Source: a virus (taxonomy: Duplodnaviria; Heunggongvirae; Uroviricota; Caudoviricetes). Taken from it: DNA of 43,511 nt. Position numbers and translations under genes: made by a program. The stretch is from IMG/VR virus record IMGVR_UViG_2529292919_000025; one strand, written 5' to 3'. A model generated the notes under the pieces. The model saw only the letters and a program-made list of their open reading frames with translations. It ran no database searches and was not told the DNA's origin. Of the stretch, positions 1 to 43,511 are shown in pieces; within the stretch, counting starts at the first letter, position 1, and every line of letters starts with the position of its first letter.

Positions 1-1260
1 ATGCCAAAACTCACAGATATGCAGATCCGCGCATGGATAAAGGCGGGAGACAGATTTGATGGCAAGGCAGACGGCAACGGCCTTTATATTTGCTACCCCA
101 AAAACTACACAGCCCCGTTCTGGCGATTCCGCTATAAGCTCGCAGGAAAGCAGCGGGCTATGGTTATAGGCTCTTACTCCGAACTGTCACTATCAAAAGC
201 CAGAGAAACAGCAAAAGAGCTGTCAGCCAGAGTTGCTCTTGGCTATGACGTAGCAGCAGAGAAACAGGAACGAAAAGCTGAAGCACTGGCAAAAATGGAG
301 GCTGAGAAAAACGCCATGCGTGTTTCAGATCTGGCCTCCGAATACTTCGAGCGCCAGATACTTCCGAGATGGAAACATCCCGATATCCTTCGCCGGAGAA
401 TTGATAAGGATATTAACCCCTGCATTGGGCATATGAAGGTAGAGGACGTTAAGCCACGCCACATTGACGACATGTTGAAAGGTATCGTTGACCGAGGAGC
501 ACCAACGATAGCAACAGATGTATTACGCTGGACACGCCGTATCTTTGACTACGGGATAAAACGCCACGCTCTGGAGATAAACCCTTGTTCAGCGTTTGAA
601 GTATCTGATGCTGGTGGTAAAGAGGTTTCCCGCGACCGTTGGCTAACTCGCGATGAGCTTATCAGGCTATTCGAGGCTATGCGCACCGCAAAAGGATTCA
701 GCCGCCAGAACGAACTGACATTTAAGCTATTGCTGGCACTATGCGTTCGTAAGATGGAGTTATGCGCCGCACGATGGGAAGAGTTTGATTTAGATGGTGC
801 GGTATGGCATTTGCCGGAAGAACGCAGCAAAAACGGAGACCCTATTGATATACCTCTACCTTCCCCAGCCGTTGAATGGTTGAGAGAGCTACACACCTTT
901 TCATGTAATAGCGCATGGGTGCTTCCAGCCAGGAAGATGCAAAACAGAATGATCCCACATATTCAGGAAAGCACTTTGCCCGTAGCACTGGCTAAGGTTC
1001 GCGCCGAAATGCCGGATGTGCCTAATTTCACGATTCACGACTTCCGACGCACCGCACGTACTCATTTAGCAGCGTTGGGTGTTGATCCTGTCGTGGCGGA
1101 ACGATGCCTCAATCATCGCATTAAGGGCGTAGAGGGGATTTATAACCGCCATCAGTATTTTGATGAGCGTAAAGCAGCACTGGCACAGTGGGCTGATCTG
1201 CTGGTGGCACTGGAAAGCGGAAAAGACTACAACGTAACGCCTCTCAGAAGGGCGAACTAA
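1..1260 (+). CDS. int: Tyrosine recombinase, P4-type island integrase
   Basis: 419-aa ORF starting at window base 1; C-terminal catalytic region with HDFRRTARTHL and terminal GIYNRHQY (R..H..R..Y tyrosine-recombinase pattern); N-terminal region typical of P4-family integrases. Confidence 0.85.
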   Translation: MPKLTDMQIRAWIKAGDRFDGKADGNGLYICYPKNYTAPFWRFRYKLAGKQRAMVIGSYSELSLSKARETAKELSARVALGYDVAAEKQERKAEALAKMEAEKNAMRVSDLASEYFERQILPRWKHPDILRRRIDKDINPCIGHMKVEDVKPRHIDDMLKGIVDRGAPTIATDVLRWTRRIFDYGIKRHALEINPCSAFEVSDAGGKEVSRDRWLTRDELIRLFEAMRTAKGFSRQNELTFKLLLALCVRKMELCAARWEEFDLDGAVWHLPEERSKNGDPIDIPLPSPAVEWLRELHTFSCNSAWVLPARKMQNRMIPHIQESTLPVALAKVRAEMPDVPNFTIHDFRRTARTHLAALGVDPVVAERCLNHRIKGVEGIYNRHQYFDERKAALAQWADLLVALESGKDYNVTPLRRAN

Positions 1261-1355
1261 CTGAATAGATTGAGCCTAGCTCGACGGGGCGAAAAGCGGG
1301 AAGCCTTACCGCCTGGCTCAATCACAAAATAAGGCGCAGCGTAAAAGGTGACGCA

Positions 1356-2321
1356 ATGAACGACTCTCATGAAACAACAGTGGTGCATAGAAATTTATGG
1401 CAGGAATCAGGTATTCCACCTTTGGACTACTGCACGATAGAGCGAGCATCAAAATTATTAAATTGTGAAATTGATGATATATGGCATTGGAAAGATAGAC
1501 TACATATAGACTTTTATGTCTATGCTGACTTTCTTGATTTCATTGAATCTGATGCCACCATCCACTTCAAAAAAGATGCTAATTTTATAACTGATTTATT
1601 ACTTATGTACCCAGAAGAAGTAAGGTTTACATTTCCTTTTCTTATTACCAGCGCAAGCAACGAAGTTTATATCCCAGCATCTGAAAGCGGTGCTTATGAG
1701 CTATTTTATGCACATAAACCACTGACAGTTGAAGACAGCGACAATAAAAATGTTTTTGAACAAATTGGCAAAAACTCTTTTATTGTAAGAAAATCAATTG
1801 CATGTGGATTGTTGCGTGTACGCGGTAGAACAACACGACATTATCATTCACAAGAATGTGGAGAACCATATGTGCGACTTGAAGCAACATTTGATTGTGA
1901 TCTATATAAATTCAAAATGCAAAGTTCCCAAATTCACCTGAGTAGCCTGTCAGATAAAAACATTTATATAACAAAGGCTGATTTAGAATACCTTCATGAC
2001 GCAAAGGTTAATGGAAGTTTTGACGCAGCTAAGAGCAAAAAACGATACGAAATGGCGGTAGAACAGGAACTAATACCTGAAATAAAAAATAGCAACCATA
2101 ATGCCGAGAGACATGCTGAAAACAGGGAAAAACTTTTCAAATCTGCAATATATCTTTTGTCAAAGTATCCTGATGAATGCCGTGGCAAAAAGAAAGAAAT
2201 AAGCCCTGAGAAGTGGCGGGATTGCATAGTGGCTCATAAAGACGAAATTCCACCGTTAGCAATCACAAATGAAGATGTGATTTTGAGACACTTACGTGCT
2301 GCCGCCAACGGTAAGGGGTAG
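1356..2321 (+). CDS. Hypothetical protein; AT-rich orphan island cargo gene, no recognisable motif
   Basis: 321-aa ORF, SD-like AAGGTG 5 nt upstream of ATG; visibly AT-rich compared with both flanks; stop codon TAG (2319-2321) abuts the prophage end; its probable terminator is found at 40131-40160 beyond the prophage. Confidence 0.6.
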   Translation: MNDSHETTVVHRNLWQESGIPPLDYCTIERASKLLNCEIDDIWHWKDRLHIDFYVYADFLDFIESDATIHFKKDANFITDLLLMYPEEVRFTFPFLITSASNEVYIPASESGAYELFYAHKPLTVEDSDNKNVFEQIGKNSFIVRKSIACGLLRVRGRTTRHYHSQECGEPYVRLEATFDCDLYKFKMQSSQIHLSSLSDKNIYITKADLEYLHDAKVNGSFDAAKSKKRYEMAVEQELIPEIKNSNHNAERHAENREKLFKSAIYLLSKYPDECRGKKKEISPEKWRDCIVAHKDEIPPLAITNEDVILRHLRAAANGKG

Positions 2322-2324
2322 AGT
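2319..2324. repeat. Left copy of prophage target-site duplication TAGAG(T)
   Basis: TAGAGT at 2319-2324 is identical to 40112-40117 immediately outside the other prophage end; 5-bp Mu-type duplication plus one ambiguous base. Confidence 0.55.
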
Positions 2325-7225: not shown

Positions 7226-8321
7226 CAGACACTCCAGTCATGTTAAGAGTGATTGCCGTACAGTTTGCCCATTCGTTTTCTGCCACCACCCGCAGTGCCG
7301 GTGTCACCAGTTCAACCTGGTACACCCCGGAAACGGACAATGCACTGATAATCTGGCTGGGGACAATATCGCGCCCCAGCGTGGCGGCACGTGATGCCAC
7401 CCAGTTCTGTATGGCGCTGTTAGCGGCATCTTTTACAGACCTGGCATCCTGATCACGATAGATCGTAATCCTGGCTTCAATGGTGTAATCCACCTTCACT
7501 GGTGTTTTAGCCCGCACTGTATCAGTGAGTGGCCTGACTTTCTCATCAGAGCAGAAACTCTCTACCAGCGTGAGAACACCGCCGTCCGGCAGACCGGTAC
7601 TGAGCAGCGGATACAGATCTACGGTCCCGGGAACCGGGGAAAGCACAGCAACATCGACAATGTTGGGATGGGCCTGCATGGCATGAAAGCGGTATGCGCC
7701 ACGGCTTCCGGCATTGGTGAATGACTCCGGGGCCAGCCTGATACGCTCCCGGAGCCTGTCATCGTCTTCCTGTTCTGAACCGCCGGAACTGGCCGTCAGA
7801 TTGCTCACCAGCAGGTCGACGTTATCAATCTCATCGAGTAACTGACTGACCTGCGCAGGTTGCCAGCCGTTACCAGCGGTACCGGGTTCGGTACAGGTGG
7901 ACGTGACATTGACCAGCAGCAATCCGGCCTTCAGTACCACATCTGTATCGGTGGCAAAAATAACGCTGTCGGAAGCGCTGACGCGGGTGCCTGCCGGGAT
8001 CAGCACATCAATGGCCAGTGCCTCATCTACGGAGAACTGGAGCGTGGTAGTGGCAGGCTGCGCGGCAAGACGGTATACACCGACCAGTTCACCGAGGTAA
8101 TCAATCATCGGCTCACGGGCAAAGGCGACCAGATTCTGCTTTGCTGCCTCCTGTACCGCAACCCTGACCAGCATTTCGCGATAGGCCCACAGATCAATCA
8201 GCAGACGTTCTGCCTGTGCCGGGTACAGCGTTTTGCCGGTATCCGCTTCATACTTCGCAATCATTTCTGCCGTGATTTTGTCGGCATCGCGTTCAATAAA
8301 ATCGGGTTCTGTCAGCGCCAT
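7218..8321 (-). CDS. Baseplate J-like protein (Mu gp47 / P2 gpJ-like)
   Basis: 367 aa, gene order W-J-I-fibre; sequence character of baseplate J family. Confidence 0.7.
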   Translation of the reverse strand: MALTEPDFIERDADKITAEMIAKYEADTGKTLYPAQAERLLIDLWAYREMLVRVAVQEAAKQNLVAFAREPMIDYLGELVGVYRLAAQPATTTLQFSVDEALAIDVLIPAGTRVSASDSVIFATDTDVVLKAGLLLVNVTSTCTEPGTAGNGWQPAQVSQLLDEIDNVDLLVSNLTASSGGSEQEDDDRLRERIRLAPESFTNAGSRGAYRFHAMQAHPNIVDVAVLSPVPGTVDLYPLLSTGLPDGGVLTLVESFCSDEKVRPLTDTVRAKTPVKVDYTIEARITIYRDQDARSVKDAANSAIQNWVASRAATLGRDIVPSQIISALSVSGVYQVELVTPALRVVAENEWANCTAITLNMTGVSDD

Positions 8322-8659
8322 AGCAGCTCCTGAGTCCGGGTCTGTCCGTCTGAGCCTTTCCAGCTCACCCGGAGCGTAAGATGTTCGCCGTCGACGGCGG
8401 GTTTAACTGACATAAGCTGGCAGCGGGGCTCCCAGCGCCGGATGGCATCGACGGATTCGCGCACCACATGCGGAATGGCCCGGTCTACAGGCCAGTCGAT
8501 ATAAAGATGCAGATTGCTGCCGAACTCCGGGCGATGCGGGTCGCTGCCGCGGGGAGTCCGCAGGATAATTTGAATCGCCTGCCGGATATCATCCAGCCCC
8601 CGGACAATTTCGCCGGGAGCCTGCAGGGTCGGTTGCCAGAATACTGAGGTTGTTTTCAT
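8312..8659 (-). CDS. Baseplate wedge protein (GPW/gp25-like, Mu gp46 position)
   Basis: 115 aa, size and position typical of GPW; GC-rich hairpin overlaps its start. Confidence 0.65.
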   Translation of the reverse strand: MKTTSVFWQPTLQAPGEIVRGLDDIRQAIQIILRTPRGSDPHRPEFGSNLHLYIDWPVDRAIPHVVRESVDAIRRWEPRCQLMSVKPAVDGEHLTLRVSWKGSDGQTRTQELLWR

Positions 8660-33162: not shown

Positions 33163-34932
33163 ATGACCCCGGCACTGACTGAAAAACTGGTTGAAACAGC
33201 CCGCGCGGCACGTGACGCGGGGCATGGTAAACGCGGTGCAATATACGACGCTGCCTGTGCTGAACTTGGCATGTCCCGCGCCACTCTGCTGCGCAGGCTG
33301 AAGGAGGTCTCTGTGACTGATAAACGCAAAAAACGCGCCGATGCCGGGCGCAGCGCCCTGACCCGCGACGAAGCCGCGCTGATATCTGCCACACTGCGTG
33401 AGGCCACCCGCAAGAACGGTAAGCGTCTCTATTCCATCGCGGATGCAGTGGAAACCCTGCGGGCTAACGGCTTTATATCCGCAGGCAGAACAGATGAAAC
33501 CACCGGTGAGTTTTTCCCGTTGTCCGAAGATGCCATCAGCCGAGCCCTGCGTAACTATGGCCTGCACCCGGAACAACTGGATGCCCCTGCGCCGCATACC
33601 GAAGTGGCCAGTCTGCATCCCAATCATGTCTGGCAGATTGATGCCTCGCTCTGCACGCTTTACTACCTGAGTAATGGACACAAAGGACTGCAGGTGATGG
33701 ACAGCGCGAAGTTCTACAAGAACAAGCCCGCTAACCTTGCCCGTATCGCCAGTGACCGCGTGTGGAGTTACGAGATTACCGACCATGCCAGCGGCTGGAT
33801 TTACGTTGAGTATGTGACGGGTGCGGAATCCGGTGAGAACCTGTGTTCTGTGCTTATCAACGCCATGCAGGAGCGTGGCGGCGCAGACGTGCTGCACGGC
33901 GTGCCGAAAATACTCTATCTCGACCCCGGCTCGGCAAACACCGCGGGTATGACGAAAAACATGTGCCGCTCACTGGGCATCGACCTGATAGCACACAAGC
34001 CGCATAACGCCCGCGCCACCGGACAGGTGGAAAAGGCGCGTGACATTATCGAACGCAAGCTGGAGCCGGGTCTGAAGTTCCGGCCGGTTCACAGTCTGGA
34101 AGAACTCAACGCGCTGGCCGCGAAATGGCGCAGCCACTTTAACGCCACGGCTGTTCACAGCCGCCACGGTAAAACCCGCACGGATATCTGGCTGAAGATT
34201 ACTGCTGAGCAGCTGAAAAAAGCGCCTTCCGTTGAGGTATGCCGTGAACTGGCTGTGGCGACACCAGAACTCCGCAAAGTCACGCCAAAACTTCGTGTCT
34301 CGTTCCGGGGCACTGAATTTGACGTATCAACGGTACCGGGCGTACTGGTCGGTGAAAAACTGATGATTACCCGTAACCCGTGGCGCAGCGATGTGGCACA
34401 GGTGGTTCTGACCGGTGAGGACGGCCACGAGGCGTTCTTCCTGGTCGAAGAGGTCAGAAAGAACGAGTTTGGCTTTGCTGAAAGCGCGGCGGTATTTGGC
34501 GAAAGTTACAAAGCCCTGCCGGAAACCCCGGCGCAGATGGCGGCAAAAGAAACCGAAGCGCTGGTCACCGGTACAGACAACGCCGCAGATGCAGCTGCCG
34601 CACGCAAGGCGAAGGCGCTGCCGTTCGGCGGGCGGCTTGACCCATATAAACATATTGATGACGCCACACTTCCGGCCTGTATACCGAAGCGAGGTCAGGC
34701 CTCTGACGTACGCGGGCTGCGCACTGAACAACGTCCCATGACTCATGTGGAGGCCGCGAAAGCCCTGCGCGATAAGTTCAGCGCCGACGGCCTTACCTGG
34801 ACGCCGGAACATTACCGCCAGTTAACGGCACAGTATCCGGACGGCGTACCGGAAGCCGCACTGGATGAAGTCATGGCCACGCTGACCACGCCGGCCCGCA
34901 GCAGCGTTATCAGCATTGTTAACGGCAACTGA
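33163..34932 (+). CDS. DDE transposase (MuA-like function)
   Basis: 589 aa; N-terminal HTH, central integrase-core-like region with candidate catalytic D residues (HVWQIDAS, ILYLDPGSANT) and a downstream E; followed by AAA+ ATPase, as in transposable phages. Confidence 0.75.
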   Translation: MTPALTEKLVETARAARDAGHGKRGAIYDAACAELGMSRATLLRRLKEVSVTDKRKKRADAGRSALTRDEAALISATLREATRKNGKRLYSIADAVETLRANGFISAGRTDETTGEFFPLSEDAISRALRNYGLHPEQLDAPAPHTEVASLHPNHVWQIDASLCTLYYLSNGHKGLQVMDSAKFYKNKPANLARIASDRVWSYEITDHASGWIYVEYVTGAESGENLCSVLINAMQERGGADVLHGVPKILYLDPGSANTAGMTKNMCRSLGIDLIAHKPHNARATGQVEKARDIIERKLEPGLKFRPVHSLEELNALAAKWRSHFNATAVHSRHGKTRTDIWLKITAEQLKKAPSVEVCRELAVATPELRKVTPKLRVSFRGTEFDVSTVPGVLVGEKLMITRNPWRSDVAQVVLTGEDGHEAFFLVEEVRKNEFGFAESAAVFGESYKALPETPAQMAAKETEALVTGTDNAADAAAARKAKALPFGGRLDPYKHIDDATLPACIPKRGQASDVRGLRTEQRPMTHVEAAKALRDKFSADGLTWTPEHYRQLTAQYPDGVPEAALDEVMATLTTPARSSVISIVNGN

Positions 34933-34942
34933 GGAGGGAAAC

Positions 34943-36109
34943 ATGCTGGTACTGAAGCAGCAACTGAAAGAGGCCCGTATTCCACAGGCGGTGGTGGCGA
35001 GAGCTGTCGATGTTTCTGAGGCCACGCTGGCCCAGATTGTGAATCATAACGCGTGGCCCCGCACCAGCCCCGGAGAAGTGCGCCGGCGTCTTGCGTCCTG
35101 GCTGGAAAGTCAGGGGATTGATACAGCGAAGAGTTTTGATGCTGTACAGGGCGCGGCCACGCCCCGTACAGCGGGTACCACAGATAAAACGAGCCTCAGT
35201 GAGGAAGAGAATATGTTACTCAAAAAACAGGTGTTATTTCCAGCAACCAAAAAAGCGTTTGGTCTTTTCCGTGACCCGTTCGCCGACGAAGCCATGCAGG
35301 GTTCTGATGATGTGTTCACCACACCAGACATTCGCTACGTGCGTGAGGCGTTGTACCAGACAGCCCGTCATGGTGGGTTTATGGCCGTCATCGGTGAGTC
35401 CGGTGCGGGTAAATCCACGCTGCGCCGTGACCTGACTGAACGTATCAACCGCGAGAATGCGCCGGTAATTGTTATCGAGCCATACATCATTGCCATGGAA
35501 GACAACGATGTGAAAGGGAAAACCCTGAAGGCAGCAGCTATTGCCGAAGCCATTATCAGTACCATCGCGCCACTGGAAAGCATCAGACGCAGTCAGGACG
35601 CCCGCTTTCGCCAGTTGCATCGCGTCCTGAAAGACAGCAGCCAGGCGGGGTTCAGCCACGTTCTGGTGATTGAGGAGGCCCACAGTCTGCCCATTCCGAC
35701 ACTGAAACACCTCAAACGCTTTTTTGAGCTGGAGTCCGGTTTCAAAAAACTGCTGTCCATCGTGCTGATTGGCCAGCCGGAACTGGCGACAAAACTGTCT
35801 GAACGCAACATGGAAGTCCGCGAAGTCGTTCAGCGCTGTGAGGTGGTCGAACTTCTGCCTCTGGACAATCACCTTGAAGAATTTCTGACGTTCAAACTGC
35901 AACGGGCCGGTAAACAACTGACGGACATTATGGACGCCAGCGCAGTGGATGCCATACGTACCCGCCTGAGCAATCCGGGAAGTCATCGTAAAAATATGGT
36001 TAGCCTGCTGTATCCGCTGGCCGTCAGTAACCTGGTAATAGCCGCCATGAATCTGGCCGCTGAAATCGGGGTTCCACAGGTCAACGCTGACGTTGTCAAA
36101 GGGGTTTAA
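34943..36109 (+). CDS. MuB-like AAA+ ATPase, transposition target-DNA activator
   Basis: Walker A GESGAGKST, Walker B VLVIEEAH; ATG at 34943 preceded by GAGGAGGG; N-terminal HTH-like region. Confidence 0.75.
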   Translation: MLVLKQQLKEARIPQAVVARAVDVSEATLAQIVNHNAWPRTSPGEVRRRLASWLESQGIDTAKSFDAVQGAATPRTAGTTDKTSLSEEENMLLKKQVLFPATKKAFGLFRDPFADEAMQGSDDVFTTPDIRYVREALYQTARHGGFMAVIGESGAGKSTLRRDLTERINRENAPVIVIEPYIIAMEDNDVKGKTLKAAAIAEAIISTIAPLESIRRSQDARFRQLHRVLKDSSQAGFSHVLVIEEAHSLPIPTLKHLKRFFELESGFKKLLSIVLIGQPELATKLSERNMEVREVVQRCEVVELLPLDNHLEEFLTFKLQRAGKQLTDIMDASAVDAIRTRLSNPGSHRKNMVSLLYPLAVSNLVIAAMNLAAEIGVPQVNADVVKGV

Positions 36110-39148: not shown

Positions 39149-39590
39149 ACAACGTCTTATCCAGCTCATTCATATTGCCCGTAATGAACTGGGTATGGAT
39201 GAAGACACCTACCGCCAGATGTTACAGGGGCTGACCGGTAAAGCCTCAACCAAAGGAATGGATACCACACAACTAAACTGCGTGCTGGAATCCATGAAAA
39301 GGAAAGGCTTTCGCGTTAAGCCTGCCGGAAAAGCCAGCTCAGGTTTACCGCTGGATAACCATCCGCAGTCCAGGAAAATCCGTGCGCTATGGCTTGAAAT
39401 GGCTGCTGCCGGCATTGTTCGTGACCGTTCAGAAAATGCATTAGCGCGGTGGATCAAGCGGGAAACGGGCATCAGCGCCCTGCGCTGGCTCAATACTGAA
39501 CAGGCAAGCAGTGTTATTGAGAAACTGAAGAAGTGGCAGCACAGAGCTGCGGGAGTAAAACATGAGCGACCTGAATCAGTTTCGAAGTAA
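39138..39590 (+). CDS. gemA: GemA-like protein (Mu gp16 family)
   Basis: ATG at 39138 preceded by AAAGGAG; GemA-like sequence and position immediately before Mor. Confidence 0.6.
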   Translation: MMTKQRLIQLIHIARNELGMDEDTYRQMLQGLTGKASTKGMDTTQLNCVLESMKRKGFRVKPAGKASSGLPLDNHPQSRKIRALWLEMAAAGIVRDRSENALARWIKRETGISALRWLNTEQASSVIEKLKKWQHRAAGVKHERPESVSK

Positions 39591-39951
39591 AGGGCCGGAA
39601 CTCCTGGTGGAACTGGCACAGCATACCTCTGAGACCGTTCGCGAGATTATTGATATTGAGCCCGCAATTGCCGACCAGATTGGTCAGGCCGTCGCGAACC
39701 GCATGATGCAGGTCTGGGGCGGGCAAAACGTTTATTTCCCGATGGGCATGGTATGGAAGGTCAGTCAGCGCGACCGGGAAATCTTCAGGGAGTTTAACGG
39801 ACGTAACCACCATGAACTGGCCCGCAAATTTGGTGTTTCGCTTCAGTGGGTCTACAGCGTGGTTAAGCGGGTAAGAAAAGAAGAACTGGATCGGATGCAG
39901 GGCAAGCTATTTGCTGATGAACCCGATGTAGATACGGAGAAAAAAGAGTAA
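39562..39951 (+). CDS. mor: Mor/C-family transcription activator
   Basis: 129 aa with C-terminal HTH ELARKFGVSLQWVYSVVKR; last gene before the prophage end. Confidence 0.7.
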   Translation: MSDLNQFRSKGPELLVELAQHTSETVREIIDIEPAIADQIGQAVANRMMQVWGGQNVYFPMGMVWKVSQRDREIFREFNGRNHHELARKFGVSLQWVYSVVKRVRKEELDRMQGKLFADEPDVDTEKKE

Positions 39952-39980: not shown

Positions 39981-40117
<137 letters not shown>

Positions 40118-40130
40118 TAGCTAACTATTC

Positions 40131-40160
40131 AGGCACAGTATCATTACTGTGCCTTTTTAT
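40131..40160 (+). terminator. Rho-independent terminator, probably of the orphan island gene 1356-2321 displaced by the prophage
   Basis: GGCACAGTA-tcat-TACTGTGCC followed by TTTTTATT; lies 20 nt past the orphan gene's stop in the reconstructed empty site. Confidence 0.6.
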
Positions 40161-40227
40161 TGTTCATATATGTACAGATACTTCCTCCCGTAACGAAGCA
40201 ACAACTATCGCTAAGAGGTTACGGGAA

Positions 40228-40235
40228 GCATGAAC
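40228..40235. repeat. IS66 target-site duplication GCATGAAC, left copy
   Basis: Identical 8-mer at 42937-42944 immediately outside the other IS end. Confidence 0.6.
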
Positions 40236-40265
40236 GTAAGCGACTCGTCAGAACCGTATTGATAT

Positions 40266-41837
40266 TTACTGAGAGCTCAGATCAACTTTCCAGGGCAACA
40301 GATCGCGTACCCGGTTTGCCGGCCAGTCCTGGATATGTTCAATGACGTAACGCAGCCACTTTTCTGGCTCCACATTGTTCAGACGGCATGTGCCGATCAG
40401 CGAGTACAACACCGCCGCATGTTCACCACCGCTGTCGGAACCCGCGAACATCCAGTTTTTCCGGCCTACGGCCACTCCCCGTAAGGCGTTCTCTGCGATG
40501 TTGTTGTCGATTTCCACCCAGCCATTACTGCAGTACACGTTCAGTGCATCCCACTGTTTCAGCAGGTATGCGAACGCTTTTGCCGTATCTGAGTGACGCG
40601 ACAGTGTTTTCATCTGTTGCTGTATCCAGTCATACAGTGACTGCATCAGTGGCGCGGCTCTGGCTTTTCTTGCCGCCAGACGCTGTTCTGCTGAACAGCC
40701 CCGGACCTCTGCCTCGATGGCATACAGTTCACCGATACGCTGCAGGGCTTCCGTGGTGATGTAGGTGGGCGCTCTTGCATGCACATCGTGGATTTTTCTC
40801 CGGGCATGAGCCATACACGCGGCTTCCGTTATTCTGCCGGATTCGTATAACGCCCGGTAACCACCGTAAGCATCGGCCTGAAGCACACCGCTGTAACCGG
40901 CCAGGTGATTTTGTGGATGGATACCTTTCCGGTCCGGACTGTACGCGAACCAGACCGCCGGGGGCATCTGTGAACCGGCGTTACGGTCATCACGGACGTA
41001 GACCCACAGCCGGGCTGTCCGGGTTTTACCGCTGCCCGGCTCCTGGACCGGGACGGGGATATCATCAGCATGGACTTTACCGGGCATCAGCACATACTGG
41101 CGCAGGACGTCATACAGCGGCTCCAGCAGTTCAGCAACAGCACCTGTCCAGCGCCCCAGTGTGGCACGGCTCAGCTCCACTCCCTGACGACGGTATATTT
41201 CTGACTGGCGGTATAACGGCAGATGGTCTGCATATTTCCCGGTGACAACATGGGCCAGAAGCCCCGCTCCGGCATAACTGCGTGCAATGGGTTTTGAAGG
41301 TACTGGTGCCTGCACGATATGGTCGCACCGGCAACAGGCCTGTTTCGGACGTTGTGTTTCGATAACCTTAAAGGCGCTGCTGATAAGCTCCAGTTGCTCT
41401 GACACATCACATCCCAGAGAACTGAGTTCACCACCACAGGCAGGACAGCATTCCTCTTCCGGCCGGATAACCCGGGTTTCACGGGGAAGTGAGGCCGGTA
41501 ACGGTTTACGGGCTGAAGACTGGCGCAGGGCGGATGGCAGTACCGGGTCATATTGCTCACCCAGCGTTTCCGCCATTTCTTCCTGAAGTGCGCTGATTCG
41601 CTCCTGTGCTTCCTGTATCTGCCGTTCGGTTTTTGCACGAAGTTTTTCTGAGCTTTTACCGAACTGCATACGTTGCAGTTTCGCAACCAGCGCCTTCAGC
41701 CGGTTGATTTCGGAAGCATAAGCCGCCACCCGCTGTGAGAGCAGGCGGTTGTATTCAGCCATCTGGCGGATGGTGTCCTGTTGCGTCTGCAACAGTGCCC
41801 GCAGGCGGGCGTTCTCATGAGCAAGTGAGGTGTCCAT
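40266..41837 (-). CDS. tnpC: IS66-family transposase TnpC
   Basis: 523 aa, N-terminal coiled coil/leucine zipper, Cys-rich zinc-finger-like segment, IS66 transposase sequence character. Confidence 0.8.
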
Positions 41838-41856
41838 ATCCTCACTTTACAACGGG

Positions 41857-42204
41857 TTATATGCGGATTCCAGCGCGTTCCGTTCGTTTCGGGTGCTTCC
41901 AGTTGATACCTTCAAGAAGCATGGATAACTGAGCCGGAGTAAGGTGCACCTTGCCGTCACGGGTGACTGGCCAGACGAAGCGGCCCCGCTCCAGGCGTTT
42001 GGTGAAGAGGCACAGTCCGTCACTGTCAGCCCACAACACTTTTATCTGGTCACCCCGGCGTCCGCGGAAGATGAACAGGTGTCCGGAGAACGGGTCATCC
42101 TTCAGGACGTTCTGAACTTTTGATGCCAGGCCGTTAAAGCCATTTCGCATATCGGTGATACCTGCAACCAGCCAGATACGCGAACCTGCAGGGAGAGATA
42201 TCAT
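41857..42204 (-). CDS. tnpB: IS66-family TnpB (Orf2)
   Basis: 115 aa with sequence character of IS66 Orf2 proteins. Confidence 0.75.
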   Translation of the reverse strand: MISLPAGSRIWLVAGITDMRNGFNGLASKVQNVLKDDPFSGHLFIFRGRRGDQIKVLWADSDGLCLFTKRLERGRFVWPVTRDGKVHLTPAQLSMLLEGINWKHPKRTERAGIRI

Positions 42205-42366
42205 CAGTGGCTGCTCCCTTTTATTTCGCGGATAAGTGTCTGTAATAACGCCGGCGTCAGTTTACCTTTAAGCCTGAGAGTTCCGGCCGGCAGAACCAGC
42301 TCACAACACAGACTGTCGGACGGTGTATTTATCTGCTCTGGTTCCTGTGCGGGGGCCGGGATTTTA

Positions 42367-42786
42367 TTATTCCGGCTCCGGCGTTAACGTCACGGGAAGC
42401 AGTGCCGGCATATTTTTTCCGGAAGGCAGCAGGCCACCTTTCCGGTATTGATGGCGCCAGTTGAAGAGCAGGTTATCGTTGATTCCGTTTTCCCGGGCGA
42501 TCTGCGCCACACAGGCTCCGGGCTGCAGTGACTGCTCCACTAAGGCGATTTTAAACTCATAAGGGAAGTTGGGCCGCCGGGGACGTTTTTTTACCACGGG
42601 GGCTTCGGATATAACGGTGCTTTCAGGACGTACGACTGGTACCGTGGAAAATTGTCCGTAAAGGCAGGCATCAAGTTCCTGCTCCGACATGCCTGCGGGC
42701 AAAGGCCACGAAAGGCCAGCTCTCCGAAAGCGCACGAACATACTACAAACTGTTGATTTTGGTACACCCAGGCGACGCCCGGCCAC
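42367..42786 (-). CDS. tnpA: IS66-family TnpA (Orf1); true start uncertain
   Basis: C-terminal RRPNFPYEFKIALVEQSLQPGACVAQIARENGINDNLLFNWR HTH pattern. Confidence 0.6.
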   Translation of the reverse strand: MAGRRLGVPKSTVCSMFVRFRRAGLSWPLPAGMSEQELDACLYGQFSTVPVVRPESTVISEAPVVKKRPRRPNFPYEFKIALVEQSLQPGACVAQIARENGINDNLLFNWRHQYRKGGLLPSGKNMPALLPVTLTPEPE

Positions 42787-42936
42787 AACCCGGGGTAAAT
42801 GTTCTTCAAAGTGTAAGACGTAAAGCTTCAGTGATCCAGGTCCGGTGTTTCATACGATAGTGTCCATTAAAAATGATGGACATTATTTTTGTAGAGCCGG
42901 AGGAAACAGACCAGACGGTTTAAATGAGCCGGTTAC

Positions 42937-42944
42937 GCATGAAC
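42937..42944. repeat. IS66 target-site duplication GCATGAAC, right copy (contains alpA ATG)
   Basis: See 40228-40235. Confidence 0.6.
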
Positions 42945-43142
42945 ACCGACACTATTCCTACAAAAGGCTATATCAGACGCTTCCGCCTGGCTGAATTGCT
43001 GGGCGTTAGTGTATCCACCATCGACCGTAAAGTAAGAAACGGTTCACTACCACGTCCGGTAAAGCTGGGAGAAAAAATAACTGCGTTTGATGCGGTTGAG
43101 ATTCACAACTGGCTGGCAGAACGCCGCGGGAAGGTGGCCTGA
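42939..43142 (+). CDS. alpA: AlpA-family phage/island transcriptional regulator (excisionase-like)
   Basis: RLAELLGVSVSTIDRKVRNGSLPRPVKLGEKITAFDAVEIHNWL; ATG at 42939 lies in the IS66 target duplication; track start 42924 is inside the IS end. Confidence 0.7.
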   Translation: MNTDTIPTKGYIRRFRLAELLGVSVSTIDRKVRNGSLPRPVKLGEKITAFDAVEIHNWLAERRGKVA

Positions 43143-43208
43143 TGGAAAAGAAAAACCGCCCATTACAGGCGGCTAATTCAGATATTCGCGTATCTGATGT
43201 TACGCCCC

Positions 43209-43511
<303 letters not shown>

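Follow-up and report, generated by a model that had tools for sequence, protein, structure and literature searches.

In the 43,511-nucleotide stretch of DNA analysed here (the window), a copy of the insertion sequence ISCro1 interrupts a phage-inducible chromosomal island (PICI) exactly at the start codon of alpA. The insertion is a simple ISCro1 transposition, whose target duplication spans the alpA ATG. We consider it probable that this insertion into an EcCIMP1-type PICI amounts to an effective null allele of the satellite master activator. The satellite also appears to have been crippled several times over, because only 117 bp separate the ATG from a transposable prophage on its upstream side and an IS100-type element follows alpA. 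Both the inserted element and the kind of island were already known, and the significance of the insertion beyond the source strain is small.

ISCro1, a member of the IS66 family, occupies positions 40236-42936 on the minus strand (2,701 bp). Its boundaries are fixed because many unrelated loci carry annotated ISCro1 copies with which it aligns end to end (query 1-2701, 99.9% identity). Two perfect copies of the 8-bp sequence GCATGAAC directly abut its ends, the left one at 40228-40235 with an orphan alpA ATG inside it at 40230 and the right one at 42937-42944 with the alpA ATG at 42939. Across the plus strand of the 43.5-kb window, the octamer has just three occurrences, and the chance of an eight-of-eight duplication match at both ends is about 1 in 65,000. 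The terminal inverted repeats are imperfect (GTAAGCGACTC... and GTAACCGGCTC..., 17 of 23 positions complementary) and begin with GTAA, which, like the 8-bp duplication, is a hallmark of IS66 elements. Removal in silico of ISCro1 and one repeat gave a sequence 100% identical to the uninterrupted alleles of more than 100 E. coli genomes. The sequence-only reading, which had placed an IS66 element precisely on the alpA start codon and had called for a comparison with uninterrupted islands, was thus borne out: GCATGAAC stands on both sides, contains the ATG, and the empty site is rebuilt perfectly. By blastn, window positions 40113-40235 and 42937-43210 correspond at 100% identity to 8001-8123 and 8116-8389, respectively, of locus L001 in cq9, which carries an intact relative of the island. 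The ATG at 42939 is the annotated start of a 204-bp HTH gene there (L001 8118-8321).

ISCro1 was first named in Citrobacter rodentium. The window copy resembles the named element in its 99.9% full-length identity, its gene order tnpA-tnpB-tnpC, its GTAA... repeats and its 8-bp duplication, and differs from it in length (2,701 instead of 2,699 bp) and in a tnpA that is frameshifted twice. As in other IS66-type elements, tnpA and tnpB lie upstream of tnpC on the same strand, here the minus strand. Two of these genes are intact: tnpC (40266-41837), encoding a DDE transposase of 523 aa (Pfam DDE_Tnp_IS66, PF03050, 2.5e-103, with zf-IS66, LZ_Tnp_IS66 and DDE_Tnp_IS66_C), and tnpB (IS66 Orf2, 41857-42204), encoding 115 aa (Pfam TnpB_IS66, 4.7e-40). 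Alignment to the 2,699-bp ISCro1 copy of strain 504838 located two 1-bp insertions in tnpA (42204-42883), at 42370 and 42814, and the middle fragment of the broken gene matches Pfam HTH_Tnp_1. Neither insertion was present in any other ISCro1 copy of the E. coli genome and plasmid collections. The tnpA-proximal end (IRL) lies at 42936 beside alpA, and the tnpC-proximal end (IRR) lies at 40236 beside the leader.

Many E. coli genomes contain several ISCro1 copies, in up to 34 places per genome, and an unrelated copy adjoins the same phage end in strain 504838 as in the window. Both observations would be compatible with homologous recombination between two ISCro1 copies in place of a single transposition. 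A recombinant element would show non-matching flanks, whereas the flanks here carry an identical 8-bp duplication and the intact locus is rebuilt without a base gained or lost. We regard recombination as effectively refuted by this match and reconstruction, and its probability as negligible. Strain 504838, which aligned over 91% of the query, was also considered as an instance of the same locus and rejected: its ISCro1 entered csiE independently, made a separate duplication there, CATTTCCC, and lies 52 bp from the mor-side end of the phage in the same orientation.

The simple transposition left alpA itself undamaged. The gene (42939-43142, plus strand) encodes 67 aa followed by a stop codon, is 100% identical to the uninterrupted allele, and specifies the same protein as in cq9. 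Its product passes the family threshold of PF05930 (Phage_AlpA) with 34.3 bits against a cutoff of 21 (E=2.2e-8), a 98%-identical allele in RefSeq carries the label 'AlpA family transcriptional regulator', and the closest solved chain is 8c3t_A, an 'AlpA family phage regulatory protein'. The remainder of the alpA promoter and leader is native island sequence at 40155-40229 on the plus strand. It includes a weak -10-like GATACT (40177-82), a site that scored 7/12 in our own scan, and a leader with a 9-bp stem (40186-94 paired with 40218-26). The stem is present in the minimum free energy fold with a z-score of only -1.46, its covariation across five alleles was no better than in shuffles (304/500, not significant), and a comparison of the hairpin with Rfam gave nothing at E<=1. 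The Shine-Dalgarno sequence AAGAGG (40214-19) remained on the leader side of ISCro1. About 45 nt of leader including AAGAGG are conserved in five alleles, even where the upstream DNA is unrelated. Further upstream, an intrinsic-terminator-like hairpin with a T-run (40131-40154, plus strand) lies 3' of the preceding island gene, again in native sequence; alleles 600029 and GF43 retain this hairpin, with different bases in its stem. Behind the leader, codons 1-2 of alpA are now joined to the end of ISCro1 in a remnant ORF of 10 codons (MNVSDSSEPY plus stop, 40230-40262, plus strand). The proposal that 2.7 kb now separate the alpA coding sequence from its leader proved correct; the ribosome-binding site stays with the leader, and the reading frame is intact. 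The companion claim that the native leader is kept upstream held in that the leader is present, but native DNA extends only over 40113-40229, and a transposable prophage ends immediately to the left of it.

Regulated expression of alpA is likely lost in this arrangement, as judged from the positions of its signals. The ISCro1 genes cannot read through into alpA because all three are on the minus strand and point away from it. Alternatively, alpA could be rewired and not silenced, either by constitutive transcription from an outward promoter in the ISCro1 end or as a chimeric protein. Relaxed promoter scanning gave a single plus-strand 8/12 site, TTCATA-17-AATGAT (42849-42877), about 60 nt before the alpA ATG, and an in-frame ATG at 42924, supplied by the end of the element, opens an uninterrupted ORF of 72 aa (MSRLR + AlpA, 42924-43142, plus strand). 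However, the 8/12 site is under the scan threshold and within chance expectation; at the threshold of 9/12, the consensus scan found no sigma-70-like site facing alpA on the plus strand of the ISCro1 end. Both ATGs lack a good Shine-Dalgarno sequence, GGAGG (42898-42902) being about 21 nt from 42924, and the 72-aa product had no exact match in the gene-position collection. Where ISCro1 has been tested, in the afa regulatory region, it lowered transcription and promoter-reporter activity (PMC8764528). Constitutive AlpA in EcCICFT073 caused uncontrolled PICI replication and loss of viability (PMC6092414), so that a constitutive allele would be selected against if the remainder of the island worked. 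Continued expression of alpA thus seems unlikely. We also considered whether alpA is a recurrent target of insertion sequences and rejected this, as a spread sample of 595 matching genomes had the gene as single uninterrupted pieces. Partial alpA matches break at mosaic-allele boundaries inside the gene (query 169, 202 and 254) and not at IS junctions.

The sequence-only reading had spoken of an 'integrase island' with an AlpA regulator. The AlpA assignment stands by family (PF05930); the island is, by its gene content, a phage satellite, an EcCIMP1-type PICI. The window starts at the ATG of the island integrase gene and ends inside the IS100-type element, and the att sites and the remainder of the island lie outside it. 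About 2.8 kb of the island is visible, namely int, a hypothetical gene, alpA and 69 nt of the next gene. The integrase is an intact tyrosine recombinase of 419 aa (1-1260, plus strand; Pfam Arm-DNA-bind_3, Phage_int_M and Phage_integrase). The hypothetical gene (1356-2321, plus strand, 321 aa) lies between int and alpA, is the same gene as L001 7038-8003 in cq9, and its product matched no Pfam or NCBIfam family. Window positions 1-2324 align with cq9 L001 5683-8006 at 99.2% identity. The intact relative in cq9 extends from yicC to dinD over about 19 kb, with int, the hypothetical gene as an extra gene, alpA and an operon in this order on one strand. It contains int, alpA, antA/B, DUF4222, ash, a TOPRIM-DUF927 primase, DUF2824, ejection proteins and PerC. 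The relative thus has the features by which Gram-negative PICIs are recognised, namely int, alpA and a primase/replication module within about 10-20 kb and no phage structural/lysis set. From its family membership, its place after int and the shared downstream operon, we infer that the AlpA of the window is the PICI master activator, although its allele differs from both experimentally characterised ones (EcCICFT073 and EcCIMP1).

According to the explanation that we favour, ISCro1 transposed into this PICI and duplicated the 8 bp of GCATGAAC across the start codon. The promoter region, leader hairpin, Shine-Dalgarno sequence and orphan ATG stayed on the left, and intact alpA came to lie 2.7 kb to the right, against the tnpA-proximal end of the element. 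Most likely, alpA would then be left without regulated transcription, since its leader and promoter are cut off and the ISCro1 genes are transcribed away from it, and with poor translation initiation only. In related PICIs, a helper phage switches the activator on, and the activator drives its own promoter and is needed for excision, replication and transfer. In published deletions of alpA, both excision and transfer were lost; in EcCICFT073 the deletion abolishes transfer, and overexpression of AlpA alone leads to excision and replication (PMC6092414). Because the island is a PICI and the AlpA of EcCICFT073 has no effect on int regulation (PMC6092414), the expected consequence of the insertion would be the loss of helper-phage-induced excision, replication and transfer, not of integrase control. 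On these grounds, we infer that both alpA expression and island mobility were lost. Cross-talk has been reported among AlpA-family excisionases (PMC11773190), and if another element in the cell encodes a protein of this family, that protein might stand in for the activator in trans.

The same island is also split by a BcepMu-type transposable (Mu-like) prophage of 37,788 bp (2325-40112, 37.8 kb), with termini TGATGCG...TAATCA. It is flanked by a 6-bp target duplication, TAGAGT, at 2319-2324 and 40113-40118, which the comparison of both flanks with cq9 revealed; the cq9 target reads GGGGTAGAGTAGC. The left terminus, TGATGCGCC..., is common to four independent insertion sites, right-end matches stop at 40112 in many genomes, and an independent insertion in potG of strain MS 21-1 has a second 6-bp duplication, TAAAGG. 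The invertase, tail and head genes lie on the minus strand, and the early genes run on the plus strand toward alpA: the transposase (33163-34932), a MuB-like ATPase (34916-36109), Gam, gp16/GemA and Mor (39562-39951). This set, headed by a DDE transposase, is that of transposable phages; Pfam matches include rve, AAA_22 and Mor, and near-identical prophages are annotated in RefSeq. The transposase is 67.6% identical to gp09 of BcepMu and 98.5% identical to that of phage PhiKM, and the late region is 98.6% identical to PhiKM. With Burkholderia BcepMu and phiE255, the prophage shares a transposase of about 68% identity, early and late blocks on opposite strands, and transposition with a short duplication; unlike them, it is an E. 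coli representative, nearest PhiKM (98.5%). Its 6-bp duplication was measured at two sites. The prophage separates int and the hypothetical gene from alpA and leaves only 117 bp of native DNA before the alpA ATG, and the hypothetical ORF is preserved because its TAG stop codon lies within the TAGAGT duplication.

On the other side of alpA, the left end of an IS100-type element of the IS21 family (43211-43511, plus strand) begins with TGTCACGAACGG, carries istA from 43296 and runs off the window. It matches the annotated 'IS21-like element IS100 family transposase', with HTH domains in the N-terminal 72 aa. It sits 68 bp past the alpA stop codon, inside the next island gene, of which only the first 69 nt remain (43142-43210, plus strand). 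Homology to cq9, where the intact gene measures 432 bp (L001 8321-8752), ends at 43210. The three junction sequences created by the insertions of the window (GGGAAGCATGAACGTAAGCGACTC, TCTAATCATAGAGTAGCTAAC and GTTACGCCCCTTGTCACGAACGG) occurred in none of 5,426 complete E. coli genomes: the prophage-leader junction gave no match, either with alpA intact or as an exact pattern, the island-IS100 junction gave none, and the exact leader-ISCro1 junction was not found in the GTDB species representatives either.

These additional disruptions raise the possibility that ISCro1 is functionally irrelevant, having entered the neutral wreck of a satellite already killed by the prophage, the IS100-type element or both. 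This reading shares the anatomy of the favoured one and departs from it solely in the timing of events and in what caused what. About 900 bp of native island sequence contains three independent mobile elements, and truncation of the first operon gene downstream of alpA by the IS100-type element would be polar on the satellite operon. The prophage and insertion sequences would enlarge the island from about 19 kb to about 60 kb, which probably exceeds what a satellite can package, and the two private tnpA frameshifts fit a long neutral residence of the ISCro1 copy. On the other hand, the flanks match the intact allele at 100% identity and offer no clock for the order of events, and no related genome was found with only one or two of the three insertions. 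Moreover, the prophage spares the hypothetical ORF and the whole 117-bp region upstream of alpA, and alone it need not have inactivated alpA. We therefore treat a satellite dead before ISCro1 arrived as a serious contender, though one that we would not favour. Since ISCro1 is one of three disruptions, immobilisation is overdetermined, and the 'locking' of the island cannot be attributed to ISCro1 alone. ISCro1 is one step of decay and not necessarily the immobilising step, and its insertion is best seen as ordinary decay because the same island was also split by a Mu-like prophage and a second insertion sequence.

A more speculative view of the three elements around alpA is that they reflect a mobile-element conflict, in which ISCro1 at the ATG was selected as a suppressor silencing the satellite. 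The early/middle operon of the prophage, which ends in mor, points toward the alpA leader with only 117 bp left before the ATG, and read-out from the induced prophage might switch on the satellite master activator, harming the phage, the host or both. We think this very improbable. In a weaker version, ISCro1 would simply prefer DNA just outside the mor-side end of the phage, as the insertion in strain 504838 might suggest.

The insertion provides a clean natural case in which an insertion sequence disconnects the master switch of a phage satellite, and an instance of mobile-element nesting, with a transposable prophage and two insertion sequences inside one PICI. Annotators should assign int and alpA to a single small satellite despite the 40 kb between them, and should not count the intervening prophage as a piece of an 'integrase island'. 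Should the strain be available, its natural alpA-uncoupled allele could also be used to gauge how far PICI induction depends on the native leader.

Among known systems, AlpA of the cryptic prophage CP4-57 and Vis of satellite P4 are the founding members of PF05930. The AlpA of the window resembles them as a small winged-helix DNA-binding protein of an integrase-bearing island. The roles reported for the family differ: CP4-57 AlpA is said to raise int expression and P4 Vis to act in excision, whereas in PICIs the target of AlpA is the satellite operon instead of int (PMC6092414). A precedent for the insertion itself comes from E. coli ST131, where ISCro1 entered the afa/dr regulatory region and transcription of the neighbouring gene dropped (PMC8764528). 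That copy lies 440 bp upstream of the start codon, whereas the copy in the window lies on it; the comparison concerns position. The functional analogue of the presumed ISCro1 effect is the alpA deletion of EcCICFT073, in which loss of the activator abolishes PICI induction and transfer (PMC6092414). The deletion was engineered and its phenotypes were measured, whereas the allele in the window, known from its sequence, arose by a natural insertion that left the coding sequence whole.

For the island as a whole, the closest known system is EcCIMP1, the PICI of E. coli MP1, which is mobilised by the P22-like phage Kapi1 (PMC11773190). The cq9 relative has the same module order after alpA and shares with EcCIMP1 the protein accessions WP_000476150.1 (DUF4222), WP_001024679.1, WP_000181940.1 and WP_001018524.1. 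In both, alpA occupies its canonical place downstream of int, and antA/B, ash, the TOPRIM-DUF927 primase, DUF2824, the ejection protein and PerC are also common. The two islands differ in integrase and attachment site (yicC/dinD here, tRNA-Thr between proA and yagU in EcCIMP1), in the extra 321-aa gene between int and alpA, and in the AlpA allele: an unaligned, position-by-position comparison of the two proteins gives only 9 matches in 68 positions. In contrast to EcCIMP1, the island in the window is interrupted three times.

The 8-bp sequence GCATGAAC occurs at 40228-40235 and again at 42937-42944, and between the two copies lies the IS66-family insertion sequence ISCro1, with its genes on the minus strand (40236-42936; 2,701 bp by end-to-end alignment to annotated copies). 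Copies labelled 'IS66-like element ISCro1 family', on chromosomes and on plasmids at numerous unrelated sites, match it at 99.9% identity over its full length. Because the match runs from end to end at unrelated loci, both boundaries are fixed; judged by its sequence, this is a known element. The terminal inverted repeats are imperfect (GTAAGCGACTC... and GTAACCGGCTC...). On the minus strand, TnpC (DDE_Tnp_IS66, E=2.5e-103) and TnpB (TnpB_IS66 match) are intact and TnpA is only a fragment (HTH_Tnp_1 match); tnpA is frameshifted by two 1-bp insertions at 42370 and 42814. Searches of the E. coli genome collection (about 5,000 ISCro1 places) and of the plasmid collection (about 1,700) turned up neither insertion in a second copy, the best match to the frameshifted region elsewhere being 484/486 nt. 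Elsewhere in the window there is no net gain or loss of length against the references. Either this copy is decaying or the two insertions are sequencing errors.

The sequence-only reading had placed an IS66 element exactly at the start codon of alpA, the AlpA-family regulator gene of the island, and every coordinate proved correct. The comparison with uninterrupted islands that it suggested gave the same picture: with the element and one repeat copy removed, the rebuilt site matches, at 100%, the uninterrupted alleles that many E. coli genomes carry. In E. coli cq9, which carries an intact relative of the island (locus L001), blastn aligned 40113-40235 with 8001-8123 and 42937-43210 with 8116-8389, both at 100%. 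Because the two flanking repeats match and the empty site is rebuilt perfectly, an origin of this arrangement by recombination between two ISCro1 copies is rejected.

In cq9, a 204-bp HTH gene is annotated as starting at the ATG that lies within the right repeat (42939); the 67-aa product encoded in the window scores above the Pfam Phage_AlpA threshold (34.3 bits versus 21) and does not differ from the cq9 protein. The alpA coding sequence is intact, and everything upstream of position -2 has been displaced by ISCro1. Comparison of five alleles revealed a conserved leader block of about 45 nt, CGTAACGAAG...AAGAGGTTACGGGAAGCATG (40186-40229; 8074-8117 in L001), which is kept even in alleles whose more distal upstream DNA is unrelated. 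It holds the Shine-Dalgarno sequence AAGAGG and a 9-bp stem, TCCCGTAAC / GTTACGGGA (40186-94 / 40218-26), enclosing a 23-nt loop with the Shine-Dalgarno sequence at the loop end. All five alleles keep the stem, which varies by a single double change (C-G to U-A) and by wobble changes, five being too small a sample for significance. The leader has no match in Rfam and may act as an RNA element or as an operator for AlpA.

This whole block now lies beyond ISCro1, on the far side from the alpA coding sequence. The tnpA-proximal end of the element directly precedes alpA, and the IS genes are transcribed away from it. Residual or rewired expression of alpA from the ISCro1 end is weakly possible: a consensus scan of this end found no promoter-like site toward alpA, and a relaxed scan found one 8/12 site at 42849. 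The native ATG is left without a good ribosome-binding site, as is an in-frame ATG at 42924 that would give a 72-aa MSRLR-AlpA chimera, for which no record of the exact product was found. In the sole experimental case that we found, transcription of the neighbour fell when ISCro1 lay in a regulatory region (PMC8764528). Given the displaced leader, the divergent IS genes, the poor promoter and ribosome-binding signals and this precedent, we consider it likely that regulated alpA expression has been lost. The proposed uncoupling of AlpA from its promoter is well supported by the anatomy, with leader and Shine-Dalgarno sequence beyond the IS.

Upstream of the leader lies a complete-looking BcepMu-type transposable prophage of 37.8 kb (2325-40112; TGATGCG...TAATCA). 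Its left terminus, TGATGCGCC..., is common to four independent insertion sites, and matches in many genomes end at its right terminus, ...TAATCA (40112). Only 117 bp of native DNA (40113-40229) are therefore left between the prophage and the orphan ATG. It is flanked by a 6-bp duplication, TAGAGT, which takes in the TAG stop codon of a 321-aa gene, and in strain MS 21-1 a separate insertion into potG likewise carries a 6-bp duplication, TAAAGG, in contrast to the 5 bp of Mu. The genes include an rve-type transposase (67.6% identical to BcepMu gp09 and 98.5% to that of phage PhiKM), a MuB-like AAA ATPase, Gam, gp16/GemA and Mor. At the left end, a minus-strand serine invertase (Gin/Cin-like; 2403-2975) adjoins tail-fibre genes (up to about 5560); this segment is unmatched in PhiKM, matches tail-fibre and recombinase segments of other coliphages, and is probably an invertible host-range cassette. 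At the right end, a promoter-like site (TTCACA-16-CATATT, 9/12, plus strand, 40003-40030) points outward toward the alpA leader, the count of such sites in the region equalling chance expectation. E. coli 504838 has an independent simple ISCro1 insertion in csiE (L002 10112-12870, duplication CATTTCCC), 52 bp outside the mor-side end of the same prophage type; the ISCro1 of the window lies 123 bp outside, in the same orientation. This is the sole other such case found among about 600 genomes with this phage end, and the recurrence may be coincidence or target preference.

Owing to the prophage, the first gene of the window, a 419-aa tyrosine integrase (1-1260), and the 321-aa gene (1356-2321) lie about 38 kb from alpA; in cq9 they are directly upstream, 114 bp apart from alpA. 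The 321-aa gene belongs to no Pfam or NCBIfam family; a single RefSeq record, otherwise matching identically, labels one of the genes under the match 'PM1773 family protein'. Satellites often carry accessory or defence cargo at this position between int and alpA. Downstream, homology to the intact island ends at 43210, 68 bp past the alpA stop codon and within the next island gene, which is cut after 69 nt by an IS100-type IS21-family element (43211-43511, past the window end; starting TGTCACGAACGG). About 900 bp of native island sequence has therefore received three independent mobile-element insertions.

In EcCICFT073, an experimentally characterised phage-inducible chromosomal island (PICI), deletion of alpA abolishes transfer, AlpA overexpression alone leads to excision and replication, and int expression is not under AlpA control (PMC6092414). 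The suggestion that the IS locks the integrase island in place is accordingly plausible in kind, as PICIs without alpA fail to excise, but the effect is not attributable to ISCro1 alone: the IS100-type element would exert a polar effect on the operon of the satellite, the window contains neither att sites nor the rest of the island, and the prophage enlarges the island to about 60 kb versus about 19 kb when intact, probably too large for satellite packaging. The same anatomy is compatible with a neutral ISCro1 insertion into an already dead satellite. The early and middle prophage genes are on the plus strand with mor last (ending at 39951), directed toward alpA; a scenario in which selection favoured ISCro1 because it silenced alpA, once the prophage had brought outward transcription alongside, is speculative and very improbable.

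All three insertion junctions are absent from every complete E. coli genome searched, and neither the leader-IS nor the prophage-leader junction, the two scanned there, was found in GTDB representatives. This allele is unreported but nothing unusual. It is commonplace for an insertion to uncouple a regulator, and the island belongs to a described kind. In cq9 the island extends over about 19 kb from yicC to dinD and comprises int, a hypothetical gene, alpA, a 143-aa gene, an AntA/AntB antirepressor, DUF4222, Ash, several small ORFs, a TOPRIM-DUF927 primase, DUF2824, P22-type ejection proteins and a PerC-family regulator. E. coli MP1 carries a PICI, EcCIMP1 (PMC11773190), that has the same gene set and several identical protein accessions, whereas its integrase, attachment site and AlpA allele differ. 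By these sequence comparisons, the island is a phage satellite of the EcCIMP1 type whose module for integration and regulation is a different one.
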